The notes beneath the pieces were generated by a model. The model saw only the letters and a program-made list of their open reading frames with translations. It made no database searches and was not told the origin of the DNA. This document shows, one piece after another, positions 8,504 through 21,827 of a DNA stretch of 64,000 bases; position 1 is the stretch's first letter, and every line of letters begins with the position of its first letter. The stretch spans positions 2,176,001 to 2,240,000 of the forward strand of contig CBDBEV010000001.1 of assembly GCA_965204535.1 (NCBI GenBank), in the 5' to 3' direction. Both the position numbers and the translations under genes were made by a program. This DNA comes from a bacterium (GTDB lineage Bacteria > UBA8248).

Positions 8504-9523
8504 CTAGCCCGCGGGCGCCCCGTTCGTTTTCGGCGCCCCGCCATAGAGTTTTTCCGAGAAGTGGCACGCCGCGAAATGACCCGTGTTGATCTCGCGCATC
8601 AGCGGCTCTTCCGCCACGCACCTGTCTTCCTTGTAGGGACATCTCGTATGGAATCGACACCCCGCGGGGGGGTTCACGGGACTGGGCACGTCGCCGGTCA
8701 GGATCATGCGTTTTTTCTTGAGCGTCGGGTCCGGAGTCGGCACGGCGGAGAGCAGGGCTTCGGTATAGGGGTGCTTCGGTTCCATCACGACCCTGTCGGC
8801 CGAGGCCATCTCCACGATCTTGCCCAGGTACATGACGGCGATGCGGTCGCTCACGTGCTGGACGACGGCCAGATCGTGCGCGATGAGCACGAACGCGATT
8901 CCGTACTCTTTCTGCAGGTCTTCGAGCAGATTGATCACCTGCGCCTGAATCGACACGTCGAGCGCGCTGACGGGCTCGTCCGCGATGATGAGTTTGGGGT
9001 TGAGCGCCAGGGCGCGGGCGATGCCGATGCGCTGGCGCTGTCCACCCGAGAACTCATGCGGATAGCGCCGTATATGCTCGGGCCTCAAGCCCACCCGATG
9101 GAGAAGCGAGGCGACCTGTTCTTCTTTTTCCTTTCCTTTGGCGATGCCGTGGATGGTCAGCGGCTCGCCGACGATGCTGCCCACCGTCATGCGCGGATTC
9201 AGGGACGCATACGGGTCCTGAAAGATGATCTGCATCTCGCGCCTGAGTCTGCGCATCGACTCCCTGTTCAGGGAGCAGACGTCGGTGCCCTGGAAGTTCA
9301 CCTCGCCCGAGGTCGGCTCGATGAGGCGCAGGACGGCCCGTCCGGTCGTGGATTTGCCGCACCCGCTCTCCCCGACGAGCCCGAGCGTCTCGCCCGGCTC
9401 CAGATCGAAGCTTATCCCGTCCACGGCGCGCACATAGTTGCGAATCCGGGAGAATACGCCCCCGCGCACGGGGAAGTGCTTCACCATATCTCTTACTTCG
9501 AGTAGTTTCTCGGCCACGGCCAC
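8504..9523 (-). CDS. Oligopeptide/dipeptide ABC ATP-binding subunit (OppF/DppF type)
   Basis: [42 protein letters not shown]-terminal [11 protein letters not shown]...ACH. Confidence 0.95.
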
Positions 9524-9870
9524 GCCTCTCTTGTCCAGTGAAAATCCGGGTTGCGAAATAACGTATATTCAGTTTCTATCATTGCGGCCACCGGCGGGCA
9601 AGTCGAAAAGTACTATCGGCGCGGTTGGAGAATCCATCCCCCGCCCCTGGCCGTACAGGCGATTCCGCCCGGCCCGGGCGCACCCGACTGTCTCCCCCTC
9701 GTTCCCTTTCTTCGAGACGGGCCGCACTCGTGCGGGGCCGTTGATTATCGCATCCCGTTTTGCTAGGTTTGGCGGTCAGCCCGTTTCGGCGGGAACCGTT
9801 TGGCGATACCGTTCCCCGTGAATGCGCGCGAACGCGCATCGGGGCGAAAATGCTTTCCATGGAGAGGGAA

Positions 9871-10275
9871 ATGGCGGAAGAAGAAAAAGCAGAAGAAACA
9901 AACGAGACGGAAGCGCCGGAGCAGCCTGAACAGGATGAGGCGCCTGAACAGGCGGGCCCCGTTCTGACGGCGAAAGAGATCGACAAGATGAACGTGCCCA
10001 AGCTCAAGGAAGCCGCCCTGGCCTACGGCGGAAAGATATCGGGCGTCCACGGCATGGACAAGACCCAGTTGATCCGGGCGCTCAAGGAGATAAACGACAT
10101 TCCCTTGATCGAGGCGAAGCGCACCTCCAAAATCGACAGGAGCGTCGTCAAGCAGCAGATCAAGGCCCTCAAGAACATACGGGATCAGCATATCGAGGCG
10201 AAAGACGGCGTTCAGCTCAGCCGCGTGAGAAGACGCATCAAATCGCTTCGCAGGAAACTGGTGCGAACCGCTTAA
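9871..10275 (+). CDS. Small protein with Rho N-terminal-like helix-extension-helix domain and basic coiled-coil tail
   Basis: IDKMNVPKLKEAA...ISGVHGMDKTQLIRAL resembles Rho_N; acidic N-terminus; purine-rich RBS before ATG 9871. Confidence 0.6.
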   Translation: MAEEEKAEETNETEAPEQPEQDEAPEQAGPVLTAKEIDKMNVPKLKEAALAYGGKISGVHGMDKTQLIRALKEINDIPLIEAKRTSKIDRSVVKQQIKALKNIRDQHIEAKDGVQLSRVRRRIKSLRRKLVRTA

Positions 10276-10309
10276 GTTCCAGAACGATTCCTTGCCCTCG
10301 GGAGAAGCG

Positions 10310-11299
10310 ATGCCCGCACACATATCCCTGCCCCTGGCAACGAACGGGGCCGTGAGTTTCATAGACCGCATCCGGGAGGACGCTTCCCTCCTGGATCGCA
10401 CCGAACTCACCACGCTGCAGATCAACGTCGGCAAGTACTGCAACCAGAAATGCGCGCATTGCCACGTGGGCGCGGGACCGCACCGCAAGGAGATCATGAC
10501 CGGGGAGACGGCGGGCCGCATTATCGAATGGCTCGAGGACACGCAGATCCCCACCGTCGACATCACGGGGGGCGCGCCCGAACTCAACGACCACTTCAGG
10601 CGCATCGTCACCAGCGCCCGCCGCAAGGGCCGCCGCGTGATGGTTCGCTGCAACCTCACGGTCGTCTACGAGCCGGGCCAGGAGGATCTGATCGACTTCT
10701 ACCGCGAGAACCGGGTGGAGCTCATCTGCTCGCTGCCCTGTTACCTCGAAGATAACGTGGACGCCCAGCGCGGAGACGGCGTCTTTGAAAAATCCATCCG
10801 CGCGCTGCGGGACCTGAACGAGGCGGGGTTCGGCCCGCCGGGGGAACTGGAACTGAACCTCGTCTACAACCCCGTGGACGACAATCTCCCCCCGCCCCAG
10901 GAGGCGCTCGAGGCGGACTACAAACGCGAACTCCTCGAGCGCTACGGCATCCGCTTCCATCATCTCTACACCATCACGAACATGCCCATCACCCGTTTCG
11001 CCAGTTATCTGAAGGTGAACGGCAAGCTGGATTCCTACATGGCCACGCTGCGCGAAGCCTACAACCCCGAGACGCTCCCCGGCCTGATGTGCCGGAACCT
11101 CATCAGCGTGGGGTGGGACGGCGTCTTGTACGATTGCGACTTCAACCAGATGCTCGACATGTCCCTGGGCAACGGAACGCCCCTGAAGCTGTGGGACATC
11201 TCACCCGAAGACCTGCTGGGCCGGGAAATTCTCCTGGGCGATCATTGCTTCGGCTGCACGGCGGGGGCGGGTTCGTCGTGCGGAGGCGCTCTGTCCTAG
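10310..11299 (+). CDS. arsS: Radical SAM / Cys-rich protein, ArsS (arsenosugar biosynthesis) family
   Basis: LQINVGKYCNQKCAHCHV (CxxxCxxC), DITGGAPELN, LYDCDFNQML, C-terminal HCFGCTAGAGSSCGGAL. Confidence 0.85.
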   Translation: MPAHISLPLATNGAVSFIDRIREDASLLDRTELTTLQINVGKYCNQKCAHCHVGAGPHRKEIMTGETAGRIIEWLEDTQIPTVDITGGAPELNDHFRRIVTSARRKGRRVMVRCNLTVVYEPGQEDLIDFYRENRVELICSLPCYLEDNVDAQRGDGVFEKSIRALRDLNEAGFGPPGELELNLVYNPVDDNLPPPQEALEADYKRELLERYGIRFHHLYTITNMPITRFASYLKVNGKLDSYMATLREAYNPETLPGLMCRNLISVGWDGVLYDCDFNQMLDMSLGNGTPLKLWDISPEDLLGREILLGDHCFGCTAGAGSSCGGALS

Positions 11300-11435
11300 G
11301 GGGCGGAATCGCCGGGAAAATCTCTGGTTTCCTTCCAGCCTTCAAGTTATCATGTCGTCCGCGAGATTGCTTCGATATTCTCGGATACGCCATGTTCCGG
11401 CGCCGCGACACGATGTGAATACGGAGTGAATTCCA

Positions 11436-12236
11436 TTGTCTTTCCCGACGAGAGGAAACATACGGCGATTTCCGTGGCTGCGCGGACTGCTCGCCCTGAC
11501 TTTGAGCCTCGCTCTTTTGAGCGCGCCGGCTTCTACCGCCTGGGGTTCGAACCACGACATCGACGAAGAGGAACAAACGACCGACTCCATCGACCCGTTC
11601 GAGGACTTCAACCGGGCGGTCTTCGATTTCAACGAGGCGCTGGACGCCGTCATTTTCCTCCCGCTCGCAAAGATATGGGCCATATTCCCGAAACCCGTCC
11701 GCGATACGTTCCGCAATTTCATGCGCAACCTGAACGCCCCCTTCATACTGGCGAACGACGTCCTCCAGGGGGAGGGAGAGCGCGCCGGCATGACCCTGAG
11801 CCGGTTTTTGATCAACACCACCCTGGGCGTGGGGGGATTGTTCGACGCGGCGGCGGGTATGGGCGTGCCGTATCACGAGGAGGATTTCGGCCAGACCCTC
11901 GGCGCCTGGGGCGTGAAAGAAAGCGTATACCTCGTGCTGCCCGTTATCGGGCCGTCGACGGTCCGCGACGGTTTCGGCAAGGTGGGGGACGCCTTCCTCA
12001 ACCCGCTCAACTACGTGGGCGCCGCCGGCGACGATGCGGAGAAAATCCTTTTCGGACACAGGGTCGACCTGGCGGATCTCCTTTTCGGGGTGAGGCTCCT
12101 GGAAGGCGTCGACCTTCGCGAGCGCCTCATCGAACCCATCGATCTGCTCAGGAAAGACCCCCTCGCGCTTGACTACTACACCCTGATCCGCAGCGTCTAC
12201 CTCCAGCGGCGAAAGAAAGAGATTCTGAACAAATAG
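11436..12236 (+). CDS. mlaA: MlaA/VacJ family lipid-asymmetry protein
   Basis: DPFEDFNRAVFDFN, RFLINTTLGVGGLFDAA, EDFGQTLGAWG, YLVLPVIGPSTVRD, YLQRR; start uncertain. Confidence 0.88.
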   Translation: MSFPTRGNIRRFPWLRGLLALTLSLALLSAPASTAWGSNHDIDEEEQTTDSIDPFEDFNRAVFDFNEALDAVIFLPLAKIWAIFPKPVRDTFRNFMRNLNAPFILANDVLQGEGERAGMTLSRFLINTTLGVGGLFDAAAGMGVPYHEEDFGQTLGAWGVKESVYLVLPVIGPSTVRDGFGKVGDAFLNPLNYVGAAGDDAEKILFGHRVDLADLLFGVRLLEGVDLRERLIEPIDLLRKDPLALDYYTLIRSVYLQRRKKEILNK

Positions 12237-12862
12237 GATTACGCTTTGCGGCCGCCTGCTCAGCATGAGGGGGGGACTGCCGCACAGGGGGACCCGCGCC
12301 TCTTTTGTCGCGTAACCCACCACACCACCCACTCTCGAAACCGACTTTTTCAACAACCCCCTTCGGTAGGGTTTGATTGCCGAAGGGGAAATATATTCAC
12401 GCCTGTTAGATAAAATCCCGTGAATGAAGAGCATATATCGGGAGTGAATCACGAGATATCGATGTTATGGCGTGAATGGAAAGGTTTTGGTTATTCAACG
12501 CCGCCCGCCGCCGGACCATCCCCGCGTTCCGCCAGAAGGGCGCCTGGAAAATCGGGTAGGGGTAATCCGGCTAGGGAATGACCTCGGCGTCTTGTGCGCC
12601 GCTTTTCTGCGGCATCTCGGCTTTGACGGCGTTGCCGCCCACTCGGGCCTGTGCCTCGAACAGCCTGAAATCGATGCCATGGCCCTCGCTCGATGGCTTC
12701 CGGTTAACGATGGGGACAAGGATAAACGCGAATGGGTGATGAGGAAGGGGGGGTGGTTGCCCTCGTGGGGCGAAGGGGATAAAAGGCAGGGGAAGTTGAA
12801 TCAGGAGATACTCGGACCGTGATAGTTATCTAGTATTAATTCTATAAGGCTTACCCCTAAGC

Positions 12863-15800
12863 ATGAGACACACCCCTACATCTTTGTATATCGATACTGA
12901 GGTGTTCAAGCGCAATGGGCTACGTTTGAATACAGCGGAATTTGATTTGCTGAAAAGCACGTTCGTTAAGGGAGGACTTCGGTTACTTGTTCCAGCTATG
13001 ATGGAACGTGAGCTTCTTCGCCATTTCCAAAGGCAATCGGAAGAATGTGCAGATGCGGTTGAAAAGGCACAAAGCAAACATCCCTTGCCATTTTTAGAAA
13101 TGTGGTCGCCACTCTCTAGGGACGAAATAATAGATAAATGTTTCATGGAACTTAAAACGCAGTGGGAGCTTTTTAAATCGCACTTTACCGTTGAACAACT
13201 CCCACTTGTTGGGGATATCGAACGCGTAGTGGACAATTACTTTTTGGTTAATCCACCATTTTCTGAAAGAAAACGCAAAGAATTTCCCGACGCTTTTATT
13301 CTGAGCACCTTGGATGCGTATCACAAAAAGCACAAGGCAAACATAGCCGTGATTAGTGCGGATGGAGACTTTGCTGAAGCCTGCAAGACGCGACGTTACA
13401 TCCAACATTTGGCTGACCTCGAAAAGTTTGTCGACGCTTTCAAACCCGAACTTACAAGAGAGCAGTATTTCACCGAAGAGCCAGTCGATCCAACTCAGCC
13501 CATTGCAACCGAGGATTTAACGCAACTCAAAACAATATTAGACAGGGGAGCTGACGTTACCCCGCTTGAAATTAGGCGAGTGCTCAAACTGCTGAGAAGT
13601 CGTGGGCAGAACTATCACTATTTTTTTTCCAATGCCAATGAGCCAATCTGGCTTCCACACCTAAAAGACAGTGCTTTTTTCGAAAATCCTCCTGAAGTCG
13701 AACAAACTGAAGATGGTAGTTTCAAAATCCCTTTTTGGCCACCGATTCATTATCTCGAAAGTGTATTTGAATCAGTCTCTGACAAAGAGGAAGTTCTTGG
13801 TATCTTAGAGGAATTACCAAAGACGACTAACCCACGTGTGGTTGAGAGAATTGTAACCATAATTCTGAAGTCTGACGACTCGAATGACTTGGTGCGTTTT
13901 TCCGATGTGATTTTGACCTTTATTGACCATTCAGCATGGAATTATGAAAAGATTATAAGATTGCTTCAGAAGCTTTCGCTTCTGGATAAGCAAATTGGGT
14001 TGTTCTCAGAATCAGTGTTACTCAAGGTCGTTGAGTTCCAGCCGGACAAACAAGCCGAAGATAAGCAAGCCCGCTATAAAGCTGATCCCGAAGGTTGGCC
14101 ATCCCCCTTGTATCCAAAACCACGCATTGACGAGTGGGAGTACCAAGAGATTCTGGAGAAAGGCGTCCGACCTTTGGCGGAGCGTGAACCATATCAAGTA
14201 GCTCGGATATTGACAGATGCAGTTGCGACCATGATACGCCTCGGAATTCACCAGGAACAACTTGAAAAGGTTGGTGGTAATGACAGATCGGCTATTTGGT
14301 GTCAGCGCGTAAACGAACCCGTTAGAGAGCATCGAGATTCGGATGAAAATCTCGTTCAAACACTGACATTCGCATGTGAAAAAGTTTATGAAAAGACACC
14401 ACAGTTCGTGGATTTGCTTGATCAGTCCCTGCGAAACCAGCGTTGGAATATATTTCTGCGCATCCGCCAACATCTGTATGCAAAGTTTCTGGTACTAACC
14501 AAACCGTGGATCCGAGAGATGATCCTTGCTCATCAAGATTATAGCAACCGGAAGCACGACTTCGAGTTTCAGCAGATGATTCGACTCGCTTGTGAGCACT
14601 TCGGCGCTGGATTGCTCACCGAAGCCGAAAAAGAGCGGATATTCGAAGCGATCCTGAGCGGGCCATCGGAACAGGATTATCGAGACTGGATGGGAGATGA
14701 TTTTACTGAAGAGGTATTCGAATTGCAGAAACGATATTTCCACAAAATACAATTGGCCCCATTCGCTCCAGTGCTTTCCGGCGTATACAACAACTACTTC
14801 CAGGAGCTAAAACTTGAAGAAAAAAGACCGGTTGAAGATGATGATTATGCGCCTTACAAGTCTGGTGGGCCGAAGTGGATTGAGAAACGCAGTCAGAAAA
14901 CGCCTGATGAACTAAAAGAAATGGCGGATGAAGACATCCTATCATTCTTAAACGAATGGGAAAGTGTCGATCGCGACCCTGATGAATGGTGGGTGGAAAT
15001 CACTTTTGGAGCACTTGCCGAAACGTTTCAGCGGACCTTAAAAGAATTCATCATCCCAGACGAATCGCGACTAAATTTCTGGCTTAGGAATCGGGATCAG
15101 ATTAAGCGACCCATCTATGTACGGGCGATGATGTCTGCTATTCAAGAACACGTAAAGGATAAGCAATTCGATAAGCTCGAAGAGTGGTTCGACGTTTGTG
15201 AATGGATACTGCTCCACCCGGATCAACCAGAGGAAGCAGGCGTAAGCCGCAGTGATGAATCCAAAACGCATCCCGACTGGTCGAGTTCACGTCGGGTAGT
15301 GGGCGAATTTATCGGGATGTGTCTAAAGGAAGATGTCGATGTTCCCATATCGACGCGCGACCGACTCTCCACTTTATTGGGTGATCTTTGCACGCAATTC
15401 GACCAGCGATTGGATGAAGACAAACCCGTTCTTTTGAACAGGGACGATCCGTTAACGGAGGCGATCAACAACACGCGTAGCCGAGCGCTAGAGAGTTTGG
15501 TTGATTTCGGTTATTGGGTTCGTCGTCAATTGAAGGATGAGAAAGCTAATACGCCCGAAGTTTTCACAATTCTCGAAAAGCGATTCGGTCTAGAATCTGA
15601 GTGCCCACTAACCCTCCCAGAATACGCCCTTTTAGGGATGCAATATAGCAACATCAGCGTTTTGAATCGAGAATGGGCTGAAAAACACAAAAGCGACTTT
15701 TTTCTGCAAAACGACCTGCGGACATGGGCAGAGGCTTTTGGAAATTTCCTAAAATATAATCGACCCCATAGAATGACCTTCGATATTCTCCGGGATGAAT

Positions 15801-16459
15801 TTAAGTTTGGGATTGAAAAGATTGGTGAGTTGAAGACGGATAGCAAGACAGAGCTTGCTGATACGCTAGGTGAACACTTGTTCACTTATTACGTTTGGGA
15901 TGTTTATCCACTGAGGGGTCAAAATAGTCTACTGGAAATGTATTACGAAAAGACAATAGAAGATAAAGAGCGGTGGTCTCACTTGTTTGATCATGTTGGG
16001 CGTTCCCTGAAAAACAGCGGAAGAGAATTAGAAGAAGACCTGAAAGAGAGAATTATCGAGTTTTTTAACTGGCGATTTGAGCAAAGAGAATCTTCTGAAC
16101 TCAATATGTTTACATTTTGGCTAGCAGCGGAGTGTCTGGATGCGGAATGGCGGCTCAGGTCGTATTCGAAGATACTCGATGTGTGTGGGACAGAAGGCAT
16201 CAGAACATACACTCAGTTGGAATCTCTGCTAAAGATGCTCAAGAACCATACTGCGCTTGTCGTTGAGTGCTTCGCCAAATTGACTGAAGTTGCAATTAAA
16301 AGCGGTAGCAATACCTATATTCATTCCATTGACCAAGCGAAACCCATCCTTCTTGCTGGGCTGAACAGCGATAATGAAGTCGTGCGGAAAAATGCCGAGC
16401 ACGCTCGCGAGAATCTCCTGAAAGGCGATCACTTCGATCTTGTGAATCTTGACGAATAA
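12863..16459 (+). CDS. 1198-aa protein: N-terminal PIN-like domain (DUF4935/PIN_12 type) plus large helical C-terminal region; candidate defence protein
   Basis: LYIDTEVF...MERELLRHF...PPFSERKRKEFPDAFIL...AVISADGDF with acidic residues intact; gene visibly AT-richer than its neighbours. Confidence 0.75.
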   Translation: MRHTPTSLYIDTEVFKRNGLRLNTAEFDLLKSTFVKGGLRLLVPAMMERELLRHFQRQSEECADAVEKAQSKHPLPFLEMWSPLSRDEIIDKCFMELKTQWELFKSHFTVEQLPLVGDIERVVDNYFLVNPPFSERKRKEFPDAFILSTLDAYHKKHKANIAVISADGDFAEACKTRRYIQHLADLEKFVDAFKPELTREQYFTEEPVDPTQPIATEDLTQLKTILDRGADVTPLEIRRVLKLLRSRGQNYHYFFSNANEPIWLPHLKDSAFFENPPEVEQTEDGSFKIPFWPPIHYLESVFESVSDKEEVLGILEELPKTTNPRVVERIVTIILKSDDSNDLVRFSDVILTFIDHSAWNYEKIIRLLQKLSLLDKQIGLFSESVLLKVVEFQPDKQAEDKQARYKADPEGWPSPLYPKPRIDEWEYQEILEKGVRPLAEREPYQVARILTDAVATMIRLGIHQEQLEKVGGNDRSAIWCQRVNEPVREHRDSDENLVQTLTFACEKVYEKTPQFVDLLDQSLRNQRWNIFLRIRQHLYAKFLVLTKPWIREMILAHQDYSNRKHDFEFQQMIRLACEHFGAGLLTEAEKERIFEAILSGPSEQDYRDWMGDDFTEEVFELQKRYFHKIQLAPFAPVLSGVYNNYFQELKLEEKRPVEDDDYAPYKSGGPKWIEKRSQKTPDELKEMADEDILSFLNEWESVDRDPDEWWVEITFGALAETFQRTLKEFIIPDESRLNFWLRNRDQIKRPIYVRAMMSAIQEHVKDKQFDKLEEWFDVCEWILLHPDQPEEAGVSRSDESKTHPDWSSSRRVVGEFIGMCLKEDVDVPISTRDRLSTLLGDLCTQFDQRLDEDKPVLLNRDDPLTEAINNTRSRALESLVDFGYWVRRQLKDEKANTPEVFTILEKRFGLESECPLTLPEYALLGMQYSNISVLNREWAEKHKSDFFLQNDLRTWAEAFGNFLKYNRPHRMTFDILRDEFKFGIEKIGELKTDSKTELADTLGEHLFTYYVWDVYPLRGQNSLLEMYYEKTIEDKERWSHLFDHVGRSLKNSGRELEEDLKERIIEFFNWRFEQRESSELNMFTFWLAAECLDAEWRLRSYSKILDVCGTEGIRTYTQLESLLKMLKNHTALVVECFAKLTEVAIKSGSNTYIHSIDQAKPILLAGLNSDNEVVRKNAEHARENLLKGDHFDLVNLDE

Positions 16460-16744
16460 CGTATCGTTTCCACATCAACTCGCATCTATCCCACCATTCA
16501 CCCTGGATAATTCGCCCCAAGCGCGGGTTTGTTTCCTCGCTCACAAAGTCTCTGGATACCGGATAAAACCACTCCGGCATGACGGCAAAACAGAACCTAT
16601 TCGCAACTCACAATGCGAGAGCAAACCCTCCCTCATTGGTCGGCAGCCCTCCCTCCCCGGTCGCGTCGAGCCCTCATTCCTCGGGCTTTTTCAACAGGCC
16701 CTTGTCAGGGGGGCTTTTCTTTCCCCGCCCCGCTCGGGTTTGAC

Positions 16745-17095
16745 CGCGCATTTCCCCGCAATTGCCGTACCCGGGTTTTCGCGTGGACGGGCGAGAATCC
16801 CCTGCGCGCGGGGGAAAGCGTGTTCCCCGCGATTCGAGGAGGGAGAAAATGGAGGGGGCGGTTCGAGGTGAGGCGGGAAGCGCAAACGCTCCTTTCCCGG
16901 CGGCGTCCAGGCGCCCGCTCCCCGCGCGCGATTGCTCTCCCGCCTCCGCCGGAACCGGCCAAGGGGAATTTCTGAAAATACCTGAAAAACCCCGTAAATT
17001 CCCGTGGTTTCCCGTAAAAAAATGAACATTCATCTCGTTGATATATATGGAGTTAAGCCGAAATTGCCCGCCAAATTGACAGAAATTTTTTTTCG
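16745..17095. repeat. Dispersed ~300-350 bp intergenic repeat, copy A (copy B at 35153-35470)
   Basis: Shared blocks cgcgcatttccccgcaa-tgcc and gggg-att-ctgaaaa...taaatt--cg-ggttt-cc-gtaaa....tgaa-at...gttg...gtta. Confidence 0.55.
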
Positions 17096-17413
17096 TGTGG
17101 GGGTCTCGGGAAGAGGCGTCCCCGGCCGCCTTTTTGCCCGGGTCGAGCGGGCGTTCGCCGGCGTCCGCTCGCGCTCCTCGTCCGCGTCGAAGCCGCAGGC
17201 CTCGCGGCCGTCTTCACGCAGGACCTTCGATGGGGCCGGCCCCGTCTTGCCCGGTCCGATATGGCCGAGCCGCTCCCCCGTCCCCCCCTTGCGTGATGCC
17301 GCTCGCGGAACACGAGCCCCCTTGCATCACGCTCCGATTGCGCCCGCCGCTTTTCATGCGCGGAAGAATGCTGCAATATGGGGAGCCGCGATTTTTTTTG
17401 TCCGGAGGTTTTC

Positions 17414-18004
17414 TTGGAAATTCTTGTCCCCGTCGTCATCGTGGGGTGTATCACTTACGACATCGGCTCGGTTTCCGCGGCCTGGTTCGCCGCCAAGGCG
17501 CGCGGGATCGATTTGCGCGTGTACGGAAGCGGACAACTCGATTTCGCGAACGCCTGGATGGTGCTGGGAGACCGCGTGGGCGCGCTCGTCTTCATCGCCG
17601 ATTTCCTGAAGGCGCAACTGGCATTGGGCTTTGCGTGGTACATGAGCGATTCTCCCTGGATCATCGCTCTGGCCTGCGTCTGCGTGGTGCTGGGCGAGAT
17701 ACTGCCGGTGTTTCACGGGTTCTGGGGCGGACGCGGGACGGCGACCACATGCGGCGCGCTGCTCGGCGTATCGCCCCTGTCCCTGGCGATCTGCGCGACC
17801 ATCGCGCTGCTCATCGCCGTCGTCACCGGCAGGCGCGACCACGCGGAAGTCATCGCCATACTGCTCCTGCCCGCCGTCATCATCTTCGTGAGCGACGGAA
17901 ACATCCCCCTGATGTGCGCCGCCGTCATCATCACCGCGATGCTGCTCTATAAGCGCAGGGAGTTGGTCGAGAAACTGCTCGGCATCGGAAAAGACGAAAA
18001 CTAG
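17414..18004 (+). CDS. PlsY-like glycerol-3-phosphate acyltransferase homologue with degenerate motifs
   Basis: GIDLRVYGSG, DFLKA, LPVFHGFWGGRGTAT; TTG start after GGAGG. Confidence 0.75.
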   Translation: MEILVPVVIVGCITYDIGSVSAAWFAAKARGIDLRVYGSGQLDFANAWMVLGDRVGALVFIADFLKAQLALGFAWYMSDSPWIIALACVCVVLGEILPVFHGFWGGRGTATTCGALLGVSPLSLAICATIALLIAVVTGRRDHAEVIAILLLPAVIIFVSDGNIPLMCAAVIITAMLLYKRRELVEKLLGIGKDEN

Positions 18005-20736: not shown

Positions 20737-21024
20737 ATGGAGGAAACCACCTTCCGCGTGGGCGACAGGGTGCGCATCAAGGAGATGTACCCCGACGGCC
20801 ACCACCGGACGACGTACTTCGTGAAGGGAAAGACGGGCGTCGTCAACCGCTATTTCGGCAAATACAAGAACCCCGAGAATCTCGCCTACGGCGGCGACGG
20901 CCTGCCGCTCCGGGAACTCTACTGGGTGGAGTTCGACATCAACGATCTCTGGGACCACGAGGCGGGGAAAAAACAGGACAAACTCTATATCGAGATTTAC
21001 GAGCATTGGCTGGAGCCGGTCTAG
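20737..21024 (+). CDS. Nitrile hydratase beta subunit, C-terminal SH3-like half only (ScnA-like)
   Basis: FRVGDRVRI...GHHRTTYFVKGKTGVV...NPENLAYG...LYWVEF...DLW...DKLYIEIYEHWLEP. Confidence 0.88.
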   Translation: MEETTFRVGDRVRIKEMYPDGHHRTTYFVKGKTGVVNRYFGKYKNPENLAYGGDGLPLRELYWVEFDINDLWDHEAGKKQDKLYIEIYEHWLEPV

Positions 21025-21062
21025 GCGAATCCGCCGGCTCCCCCGTGAGCAAGGAGCACACC

Positions 21063-21827
21063 ATGGCGCACTCACACGATCACCACAACGGCGGACATGT
21101 TCACCACCACGGCGAGCATCCCCACACCTACAGCCAGGACCCCTCGGCGCACAACGCGCGGATGCAGTCCGACGACGCCTACCGCGAAGGAGCCGTGGCC
21201 CAGGTCGAGCACGACCTGGACTACTACCAGGTGCGCATGATGGCGCTGATGAACGTCCTCCGCGAGAAGGGCCTTCTCACGACGGACGAGATGCGGCGCG
21301 CGGTGGAGGAGATCTACGGCCAGAGCCCGGCCATCGGTTCGCGCATCATCGCGCGCGCCTGGGTCGATGAGGGCTTCAAGGAAAGGCTCCTGGCGGACGC
21401 GGACGCCGCCTGCGGCGAGATGGGCGTCGACACCACGGGCATCAACCGCGTGGTGGCGCTCGAGAATACCGACACGACCCGCTACATGGTGGTGTGCACG
21501 CTGTGTTCGTGCTACCCGAGGCAAATCCTCGGGCAGCCCCCCACCTGGTACAAGAGCTTCCCCTATCGCTCGAAGGCCGTGACGGACCCGAGGGGAACCC
21601 TGAAGGACATGGGCTTCGAGGCGCCCGACGACGTGGAACTCATCGTCATCGACTCGAACGCGGATTGCCGCTATCTCATCATCCCCCAGCGTCCGGCGGG
21701 GACCGAGGACTGGAGCGAGGCGCAGCTCTTCCAGCTCGTGACGCGCGATTCGATGATCGGCGTGGGCGATCCCTTAACACCCGCGCAGCTCGAGCAAGCC
21801 ATACAGGCGTCGGGGCAGGCCAGCTGA
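21063..21827 (+). CDS. nthA: Cobalt-type nitrile hydratase alpha / thiocyanate hydrolase gamma-like subunit with His-rich N-terminus
   Basis: Metal-binding VVCTLCSCYP (Co-type Thr/Tyr), ARAWVD..FKERLL, RYLIIPQRPAGTEDWSE, VTRDSMIGV; AAGGAG RBS. Confidence 0.9.
   Translation: MAHSHDHHNGGHVHHHGEHPHTYSQDPSAHNARMQSDDAYREGAVAQVEHDLDYYQVRMMALMNVLREKGLLTTDEMRRAVEEIYGQSPAIGSRIIARAWVDEGFKERLLADADAACGEMGVDTTGINRVVALENTDTTRYMVVCTLCSCYPRQILGQPPTWYKSFPYRSKAVTDPRGTLKDMGFEAPDDVELIVIDSNADCRYLIIPQRPAGTEDWSEAQLFQLVTRDSMIGVGDPLTPAQLEQAIQASGQAS

Follow-up and report, generated by a model that had tools for sequence, protein, structure and literature searches.

A predicted PIN nuclease joined to a Dsr1/Avs7-type sensor: a candidate one-protein anti-phage receptor in a UBA8248 bacterium

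What is a solitary gene for a giant protein doing between mlaA and a plsY-like gene in a bacterium of the UBA8248 lineage? The window analysed here, a stretch of 64,000 nucleotides (GenBank assembly GCA_965204535.1, contig CBDBEV010000001.1, positions 2,176,001 to 2,240,000 of the forward strand; positions below are those of the window unless a locus is named), holds at this place a single intact open reading frame (ORF) of 1198 amino acids (aa), P0001, at 12863-16459 on the plus strand. Both the ORF and its two neighbours had been noted in a first-pass annotation made from the letters alone, and ORF calls and Pfam confirmed them. The best explanation, which we consider reasonably probable, is that the gene encodes a one-protein anti-phage receptor in which binding of a phage capsid protein switches on a predicted PIN RNase.

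The effector and the sensor

An N-terminal PIN-like domain with its acidic residues retained had been suspected, and it was borne out by Pfam, fold and conservation. Pfam PIN_12 (PF16289) matched aa 8-170 (12884-13372, plus strand) with an E-value of 1.9e-21 and 77.7 bits, the cut-off being 32. D11, E48/E50, E140, D143, D167 and D169 are all present; D11, E48/E50, D143, D167 and D169 are the predicted metal-binding residues. E50, E140, D143 and D167 are invariant in 49/49 fused proteins and in 41/41 rows of the PIN alignment, D11 is found in 48 and 38 of these (the rest being gaps) and D169 in 47 and 38. Folded alone (41 rows), the domain reached a predicted local distance difference test score (pLDDT) of 89 and a predicted template-modelling score (pTM) of 0.84. 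The top fold matches of the model were VapC toxins and SMG6/Nmd4-type PIN domains; the best had a Z-score of 8.9 and a root-mean-square deviation of 3.9 over 143 aligned residues, and the best Foldseek E-value was only 4.9e-3, none reaching 0.001. The PIN_12/DUF4935 family has been placed in a VapC-like class of uncharacterised function (Matelska et al., PMC5499597; the papers cited here were available in part), and in Cosus (Brc24) the aspartates of a PIN12 protein were needed for phage defence (10.1101/2024.07.02.601719). We infer that the domain of P0001 has RNase activity. It is followed by a flexible linker (aa 195-217) and a helix (aa 218-227), together at 13445-13552 on the plus strand, as delimited by the model and by the boundaries of the split homologues described below. 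A stand-alone PIN_12-like gene, a 388-aa frame of 23% identity, lies in another AT-rich insert (L002, G000:C1:675.1-676.3 kb), and viral contigs gave seven PIN-only matches, none with a sensor.

The rest of the protein, aa 231-1198 (968 aa; 13553-16456, plus strand), was modelled as an all-helical alpha-solenoid, and Trp makes up 2.6% of this C-terminal part. No Walker A pattern was found in the 1198 residues and profile scans gave no match to a nucleoside triphosphatase (NTPase) family, so that the earlier description of a Trp-rich helical region without Walker A holds, the motifs it quoted being found in the translation. The region is not a novel domain, and it gave three matches. The first is the Dsr1 profile of PADLOC (PDLC04166), which aligned over its positions 308-1094 to aa 236-1069 (E-value 3.4e-18); the match begins where the profile's N-terminal portion ends, positions 1-307 being unmatched, and the same profile also matched 6/6 homologues tested. 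The second is the family of the experimentally tested EcDsr1: a 100-row sensor profile compared with a 12-row EcDsr1 family alignment gave a probability of 98.0 and an E-value of 2.1e-13 over 545 columns (reversed control 0.2), with the AINNTR motif, already picked out in the first-pass annotation, as the best-conserved shared block. The third is a 1510-aa archaeal ATP-binding protein (L060), a fusion of the STAND (signal transduction ATPases with numerous domains) type with a layout that suggests a member of Avs7; the alignment starts at its residue 571 and takes in 854 columns (probability 97.7). These profile comparisons place the sensor, aa ~231-1198, in the Dsr1/Avs7 sensor family already described, with its bilobed helical sensor of about 960 aa.

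Several other searches around the sensor gave less. The Avs4 structure 8dgf (Z-score 10.6) was discarded as a fold relative, as it scored no higher than unrelated rows; the SeAvs7 structures 9N00, 9N01 and 9YIX were not among the fold matches of a library that runs to April 2026 and may lack them, and a PDB sequence search with the protein returned nothing significant. A Dsr1 family search across 401 genomes found no full-length Dsr1. One genome with a fused PIN-sensor gene (G037) also encodes a relative of EcDsr1, a SIR2 protein of 1222 aa (L136:1884-5552, minus strand), so that two branches of the sensor class coexist there; a SIR2 protein from this genome did not match a shallow sensor profile and gained only 4 bits with a deep one.

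Effector exchange and genomic context of the homologues

Homologues numbered 781 in one search, and a larger one gave 4021 cluster representatives; full-length homologues are 50-76% identical and come from several phyla. The first-pass annotation had proposed examining whether homologues of the C-terminal region swap their N-terminal effectors, and they do. PIN, a pP_pnuc_1-like N-terminus (type A) and a further effector (type B) occur, fused to the sensor or split from it. Among the 120 homologues listed of the 781 (query included), 54 carry PIN, 27 type A and 39 no effector, a few of the last being fragments. The best 150 of the 4021 representatives comprise 11 that cluster with PIN, 42 with type A and two with type B, 42 that start with the sensor and 53 without a sensor start. 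At 42 genome loci we found four fused PIN, three split PIN, two fused type A, one fused type B (L048), 29 split type B and three other arrangements. Type A is probably related to type B (probability 71), and both may be HEPN-like.

In the split form, type B is a 211-241-aa unannotated helical protein (L022, L025-L027, L029-L036 and others; near 9926-9954). In 27/29 loci its gene has 29 nt in common with that of the sensor, a conserved dual-coding junction. The split PIN form was seen in three Nitrospirales genomes (L021, L023, L024; ~9300-12970), with an effector of 235-238 aa and a sensor of 990 aa; the genes overlap by 17 nt, both frames are open and the cut falls right after the linker helix. 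Throughout the split homologues the helix preceding the sensor (aa 218-227 in P0001) stays with the effector gene. A programmed frameshift at these junctions is not favoured: an ATG is present at each, in most cases preceded by purine-rich sequence, and the overlap is fixed; inspection by eye showed no slippery run. The sensors of natural fused and split PIN versions are 60% identical. A midpoint-rooted tree was made of 63 sensors, 15 of 78 having been dropped because they were more than 85% alike and had one label. PIN appears on it in four places; the window protein shares a group with the split PIN pairs and four fusions from Latescibacterota, adjacent to type A and type B forms. One Type I restriction-modification (RM) locus has a fused PIN gene in L019 and, at the identical position, a split type B pair in L022.

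Some further arrangements were encountered among the homologues. Tandem sensor genes, a fused copy beside a stand-alone or split one, occur at L037:6224-12808 and L056:5532-12943, and a 789-aa partial sensor homologue, apparently truncated N-terminally, lies between insertion sequence (IS) elements on a Legionella plasmid (L061:2720-5089). Longer fusions (1737-4960 aa) were absent among 5452 candidates, which is weak evidence. An Atlas comparison yielded clusters without a name and one DUF4020 cluster (0.89, 10% of members), which is a lead only.

The homologues were also expected to lie near defence genes. This was so at the genome loci and less so in metagenomes. RM genes lie within ~5 kb in 27 of the 42 genome loci (in four of them by a methyltransferase alone) and Gabija in one, while three others have PADLOC candidates only and 11 nothing clear (359 neighbouring ORFs, E-values up to 1e-15). 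The resulting 28/42 stands against a background of 3.1% in the window's genome; the loci are partly kin, and the comparison is no statistical test. All four fused-PIN genome loci follow a Type I operon. Established defence neighbours accompany seven of the 17 fused-PIN metagenome loci, and candidates only two more (one duplicate and fragments dropped, flanks of 0.8-12 kb, E-values up to 1e-25). As another defence candidate, a SIR2-like domain was noticed in a 612-aa frame at G000:C1:749594-750163 (L059, L137).

Capsid recognition, the proposed switch and its alternatives

Lee et al. 2026 (PMC13581612) report that Avs7 and Dsr1 have a common sensor and that, when genes of ZL19 were screened, EcDsr1 and SeAvs7 had the major capsid protein (MCP) as their sole trigger. 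The sensor envelops a capsid monomer, its lobes clamp and autoinhibition is relieved, and the effector is required for both killing and defence; members without an NTPase bear 'NADases, nucleases, and protein kinases' (also in the preprint, PMC12803255). When the sensor of P0001 (aa 385-1094) was modelled in complex with a stand-in T1-like capsid protein, the score was 0.34 vs 0.00 for the best of three controls, which is weak support. Of 157 solved pairs 116 came up to the mark for this score, as did two of 215 mismatched pairs, but scores at the mark and no higher than 0.60 belonged to just 18 of the solved pairs and to both mismatched ones. At least 62% of the contacts were common to the runs, with a partner pLDDT of at least 69. 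As a like complex has already been solved, the pass may reflect likeness. No prophage capsid was found in the host with PF05065, the one family tried.

The mechanism suggested is as follows. At rest the sensor would hold the PIN domain inactive, in which case no antitoxin would be needed. It would then bind a newly made MCP monomer, on which its lobes would clamp, freeing or dimerising the PIN domain; with no NTPase in the protein, this switch would have to be direct. The PIN domain would cut tRNA, rRNA or mRNA, so that translation stops and the infection is aborted or slowed. We have little doubt that the protein serves defence; that PIN catalysis is required is very likely, and the capsid protein is likely to be the trigger.

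A number of observations weigh against this proposal. By sequence, the link of the sensor to that of EcDsr1 is remote: the alignment spans only aa 447-1070 (595-1160 of EcDsr1), a 33-row sensor profile compared with EcDsr1 alone (WP_029488749.1) gave a probability of 2.5 and an E-value of 0.018, and the PADLOC profile matches EcDsr1 only in its SIR2 part, and therefore models another Dsr1 branch. Fold searches with the sensor found generic solenoids only, and the full-length model (pTM 0.47) has a poorly folded PIN domain and leaves the arrangement of PIN and sensor undefined. The copy in the window has no defence neighbours, nor have 8 of the 17 fused-PIN metagenome loci. Lee et al. themselves note that further activators are not excluded (PMC13581612).

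The strongest alternative, in our view unlikely, is that P0001 is a PIN defence protein whose sensor branch has been retargeted, either to another phage protein or to a phage inhibitor of a neighbouring RM system, which it would guard. The remoteness from EcDsr1 fits such a change, as does the finding that tested family members differ in the capsids they recognise (from 13 of the 23 MCP rows, PMC13581612); yet all three tested members, SeAvs7, Se2Avs7 and EcDsr1, respond to capsids (PMC13581612), and the complex model passed, if weakly, over its three controls. A guard is suggested by the 27 loci near RM genes and by the Type I operons that precede every fused-PIN gene in the genome set, whereas RM neighbours are missing at the window copy and at several others.

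It is improbable, though it would leave the rest of the mechanism intact, that the PIN domain does not kill, or that its target is DNA or phage RNA, the phage being slowed and the host surviving. DSR1 expressed in B. subtilis protected without culture collapse (Garb et al., 10.1101/2021.12.14.472415); EcDsr1 and SeAvs7, on the other hand, kill upon capsid co-expression (PMC13581612). The substrates of PIN_12/DUF4935 are uncharacterised (PMC5499597) and the distant fold matches of the PIN model include T5 flap endonuclease, whereas VapC toxins and PIN RNases are nearest to it in fold.

Returning to a capsid-triggered PIN RNase, a broader and more tentative suggestion is that the sensor is a plug-and-play platform. 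The effector-end helix (aa 218-227) may dock the effector on the capsid sensor, whether as part of a single chain or in trans; nucleases of unrelated kinds, PIN and two or more besides, would then be swapped at a single site, even inside one restriction operon. The NTPase-free PIN form would be a pattern receptor that releases a VapC-type RNase directly on clamping.

The locus, and the protein among known systems

P0001 is a single-copy gene within the 4.56-Mb genome. Its flanks, which we place outside the system, are mlaA on the left (11436-12236, plus strand; Pfam MlaA) and the plsY-like gene on the right (17378-18004, plus strand; Pfam G3P_acyltransf). The spacer between them is 5141 bp here vs 105-1357 bp in all 13 relatives fetched. 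Likeness to the relatives ends at 12236 and returns at about 17116, so that the island first drawn at 12361-16700 is indeed a lineage-specific insertion, but a larger one (12237-17115), whose exact ends are blurred by spacer variation among the relatives. The protein was not found in 30/30 relatives searched, including 18/18 genomes of the same genus. An abrupt shift in composition had been described as well. The G+C content (GC) of the ORF is 0.450 vs a genome mean of 0.605; when the genome was cut into 2533 windows of 3.6 kb, 8 of them were as low. At third codon positions it is 0.46, with 0.81 in mlaA and 0.82 in the plsY-like gene; the shift is however limited essentially to the ORF, the spacers around it being intermediate at 54-62% GC. 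Contigs from three public runs, all of one study that may be the source, contain the whole stretch and show no differences; in one run of another study the flanks were covered and the ORF was not, a gap that proves nothing. The reading of P0001 as an acquired single-gene defence candidate is supported, and the insertion is patchy.

The left spacer contains two gene remnants (12496-12674), with 90% and 82% matches elsewhere in the genome. We take them to be the 3' end of a Fic-like gene and, on the opposite strand, a flavin-oxidase-like piece, judged by their motifs. A 116-aa ORF at 12472-12822 overlies them and has no Pfam match; it is probably not a gene and was rejected as an antitoxin. The earlier remark that no antitoxin gene is evident therefore stands, the left spacer holding gene remnants only; none was found at the locus, and no small upstream gene is conserved in the four fused-PIN genome loci. 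Promoter and terminator scans at the locus gave no signal above chance, and no sigma-70-like promoter passed. Very unlikely, lastly, is a toxin or addiction gene complete in itself, or a passenger in decay, that senses no phage in this host: the gene does lie alone among repeat and gene remnants with no promoter passing the scan, and some homologues are broken (L041, L164, L168), but its ORF is intact with all catalytic residues, full-length homologues of 50-76% identity persist across several phyla, and the defence context and the homology to tested immune sensors argue against it.

The same-orientation ends of the type found in miniature inverted-repeat transposable elements (MITEs), previously reported at this locus, exist as two 16-mers (12345-12360 and 16686-16701; 88% alike), yet they carry no weight as boundaries. 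The core of the motif occurs 413 times in the genome; it forms the end of a 1.48-kb IS (24 full copies; DUF772 and a DDE transposase), which we take to be IS1182-like, and of many short repeats. The left copy (plus strand) is one of these IS-end motifs and is not shown to be an island end, and the right one, also on the plus strand, closes a dispersed-repeat remnant at 16651-16713 with many genome matches. Genome-wide, 29 of 71 consecutive motif copies spaced 2.5-7 kb share their orientation, and in three of 13 relatives the mlaA/plsY-like spacer contains two copies and lacks the gene. No reverse copy was found between 6327 and 19129, nor any long inverted repeat linking the two ends. As island ends, the two copies are no more than chance; a MITE-bounded island or composite transposon was rejected, the ends not being inverted and the motif being a genome-wide IS end, although no separate search for a target duplication was made. 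One copy of the DDE-type IS lies at G000:C1:164720-166240 (L220), and motif repeats often precede a GC-rich hairpin; the intergenic DNA of the genome is unusually repeat-rich. Elsewhere in the window, and unrelated to P0001, are an ArsS-type radical SAM gene (10292-11299) and nitrile hydratase-like alpha and beta genes (20737-21827).

How new, then, is the system? The sensor, the capsid trigger and the exchange of effectors have already been published for the Dsr1/Avs7 family, so that the proposed 'new anti-phage system' is better seen as a variant design than as a new kind of system. What is gained is a likely trigger (capsid) and output (RNA cutting) for a widespread unannotated family, which no NCBIfam model names and which PADLOC matches only in part, as Dsr1. 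Effector switching in NTPase-free sensor members is not described in the available part of Lee et al. (PMC13581612), and direct release of PIN on capsid clamping, if true, would be an activation route undescribed for Avs7 or Dsr1 in the available literature. The natural fused and split PIN pairs make the question of effector switching directly testable. A literature search found no PIN-bearing version of a Dsr1/Avs7-type sensor; PIN is unnamed in the main text of PMC13581612, in PMC12803255 and in seven supplementary files, although Supplementary Table 8 or the figure rings may list it.

Among PIN-bearing systems, VapBC shares the VapC-like PIN fold and acidic tetrad; P0001 differs in having no antitoxin gene, in the fusion of PIN to a 968-aa sensor and in possessing the DUF4935/PIN_12 group's long helical insert. 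Cosus (Brc24), compared by description only, likewise has a PIN12 domain with acidic residues needed for defence, but it is an integron cassette; the available part of its report makes no mention of a Dsr1-type sensor and places escape in a tail protein (10.1101/2024.07.02.601719).

Avs7 resembles P0001 in sensor length (968 aa vs residues 561-1523 in SeAvs7, PMC13581612), in the full-length alignment with L060, a protein of Avs7-like layout standing in for SeAvs7, and in its exchangeable N-terminal effectors. P0001 lacks the STAND NTPase and Walker A, only ~60 aa separating PIN from the sensor, and ATP-driven tetramer assembly cannot therefore apply. Dsr1 is likewise a single protein with an N-terminal enzyme, a homologous helical sensor of ~970 aa and no NTPase. 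It carries SIR2 (SIR2_2 by Pfam in EcDsr1), whereas P0001 has PIN_12 and no SIR2_2, and the predicted action is accordingly RNA cutting, not NAD+ depletion; the sensor is also remote from that of EcDsr1 (27 bits with a deep sensor profile vs 225 for L060). Lee et al. describe Avs7-sensor proteins free of an NTPase, including a Streptomyces fusion with a HEPN-like RNase, and this is the class of the window protein. P0001 is thus likely to be an effector-swapped, NTPase-free defence protein of the Dsr1/Avs7 type and to operate as these two do, distinct from Dsr1 in having no SIR2 and from Avs7 in having no NTPase.

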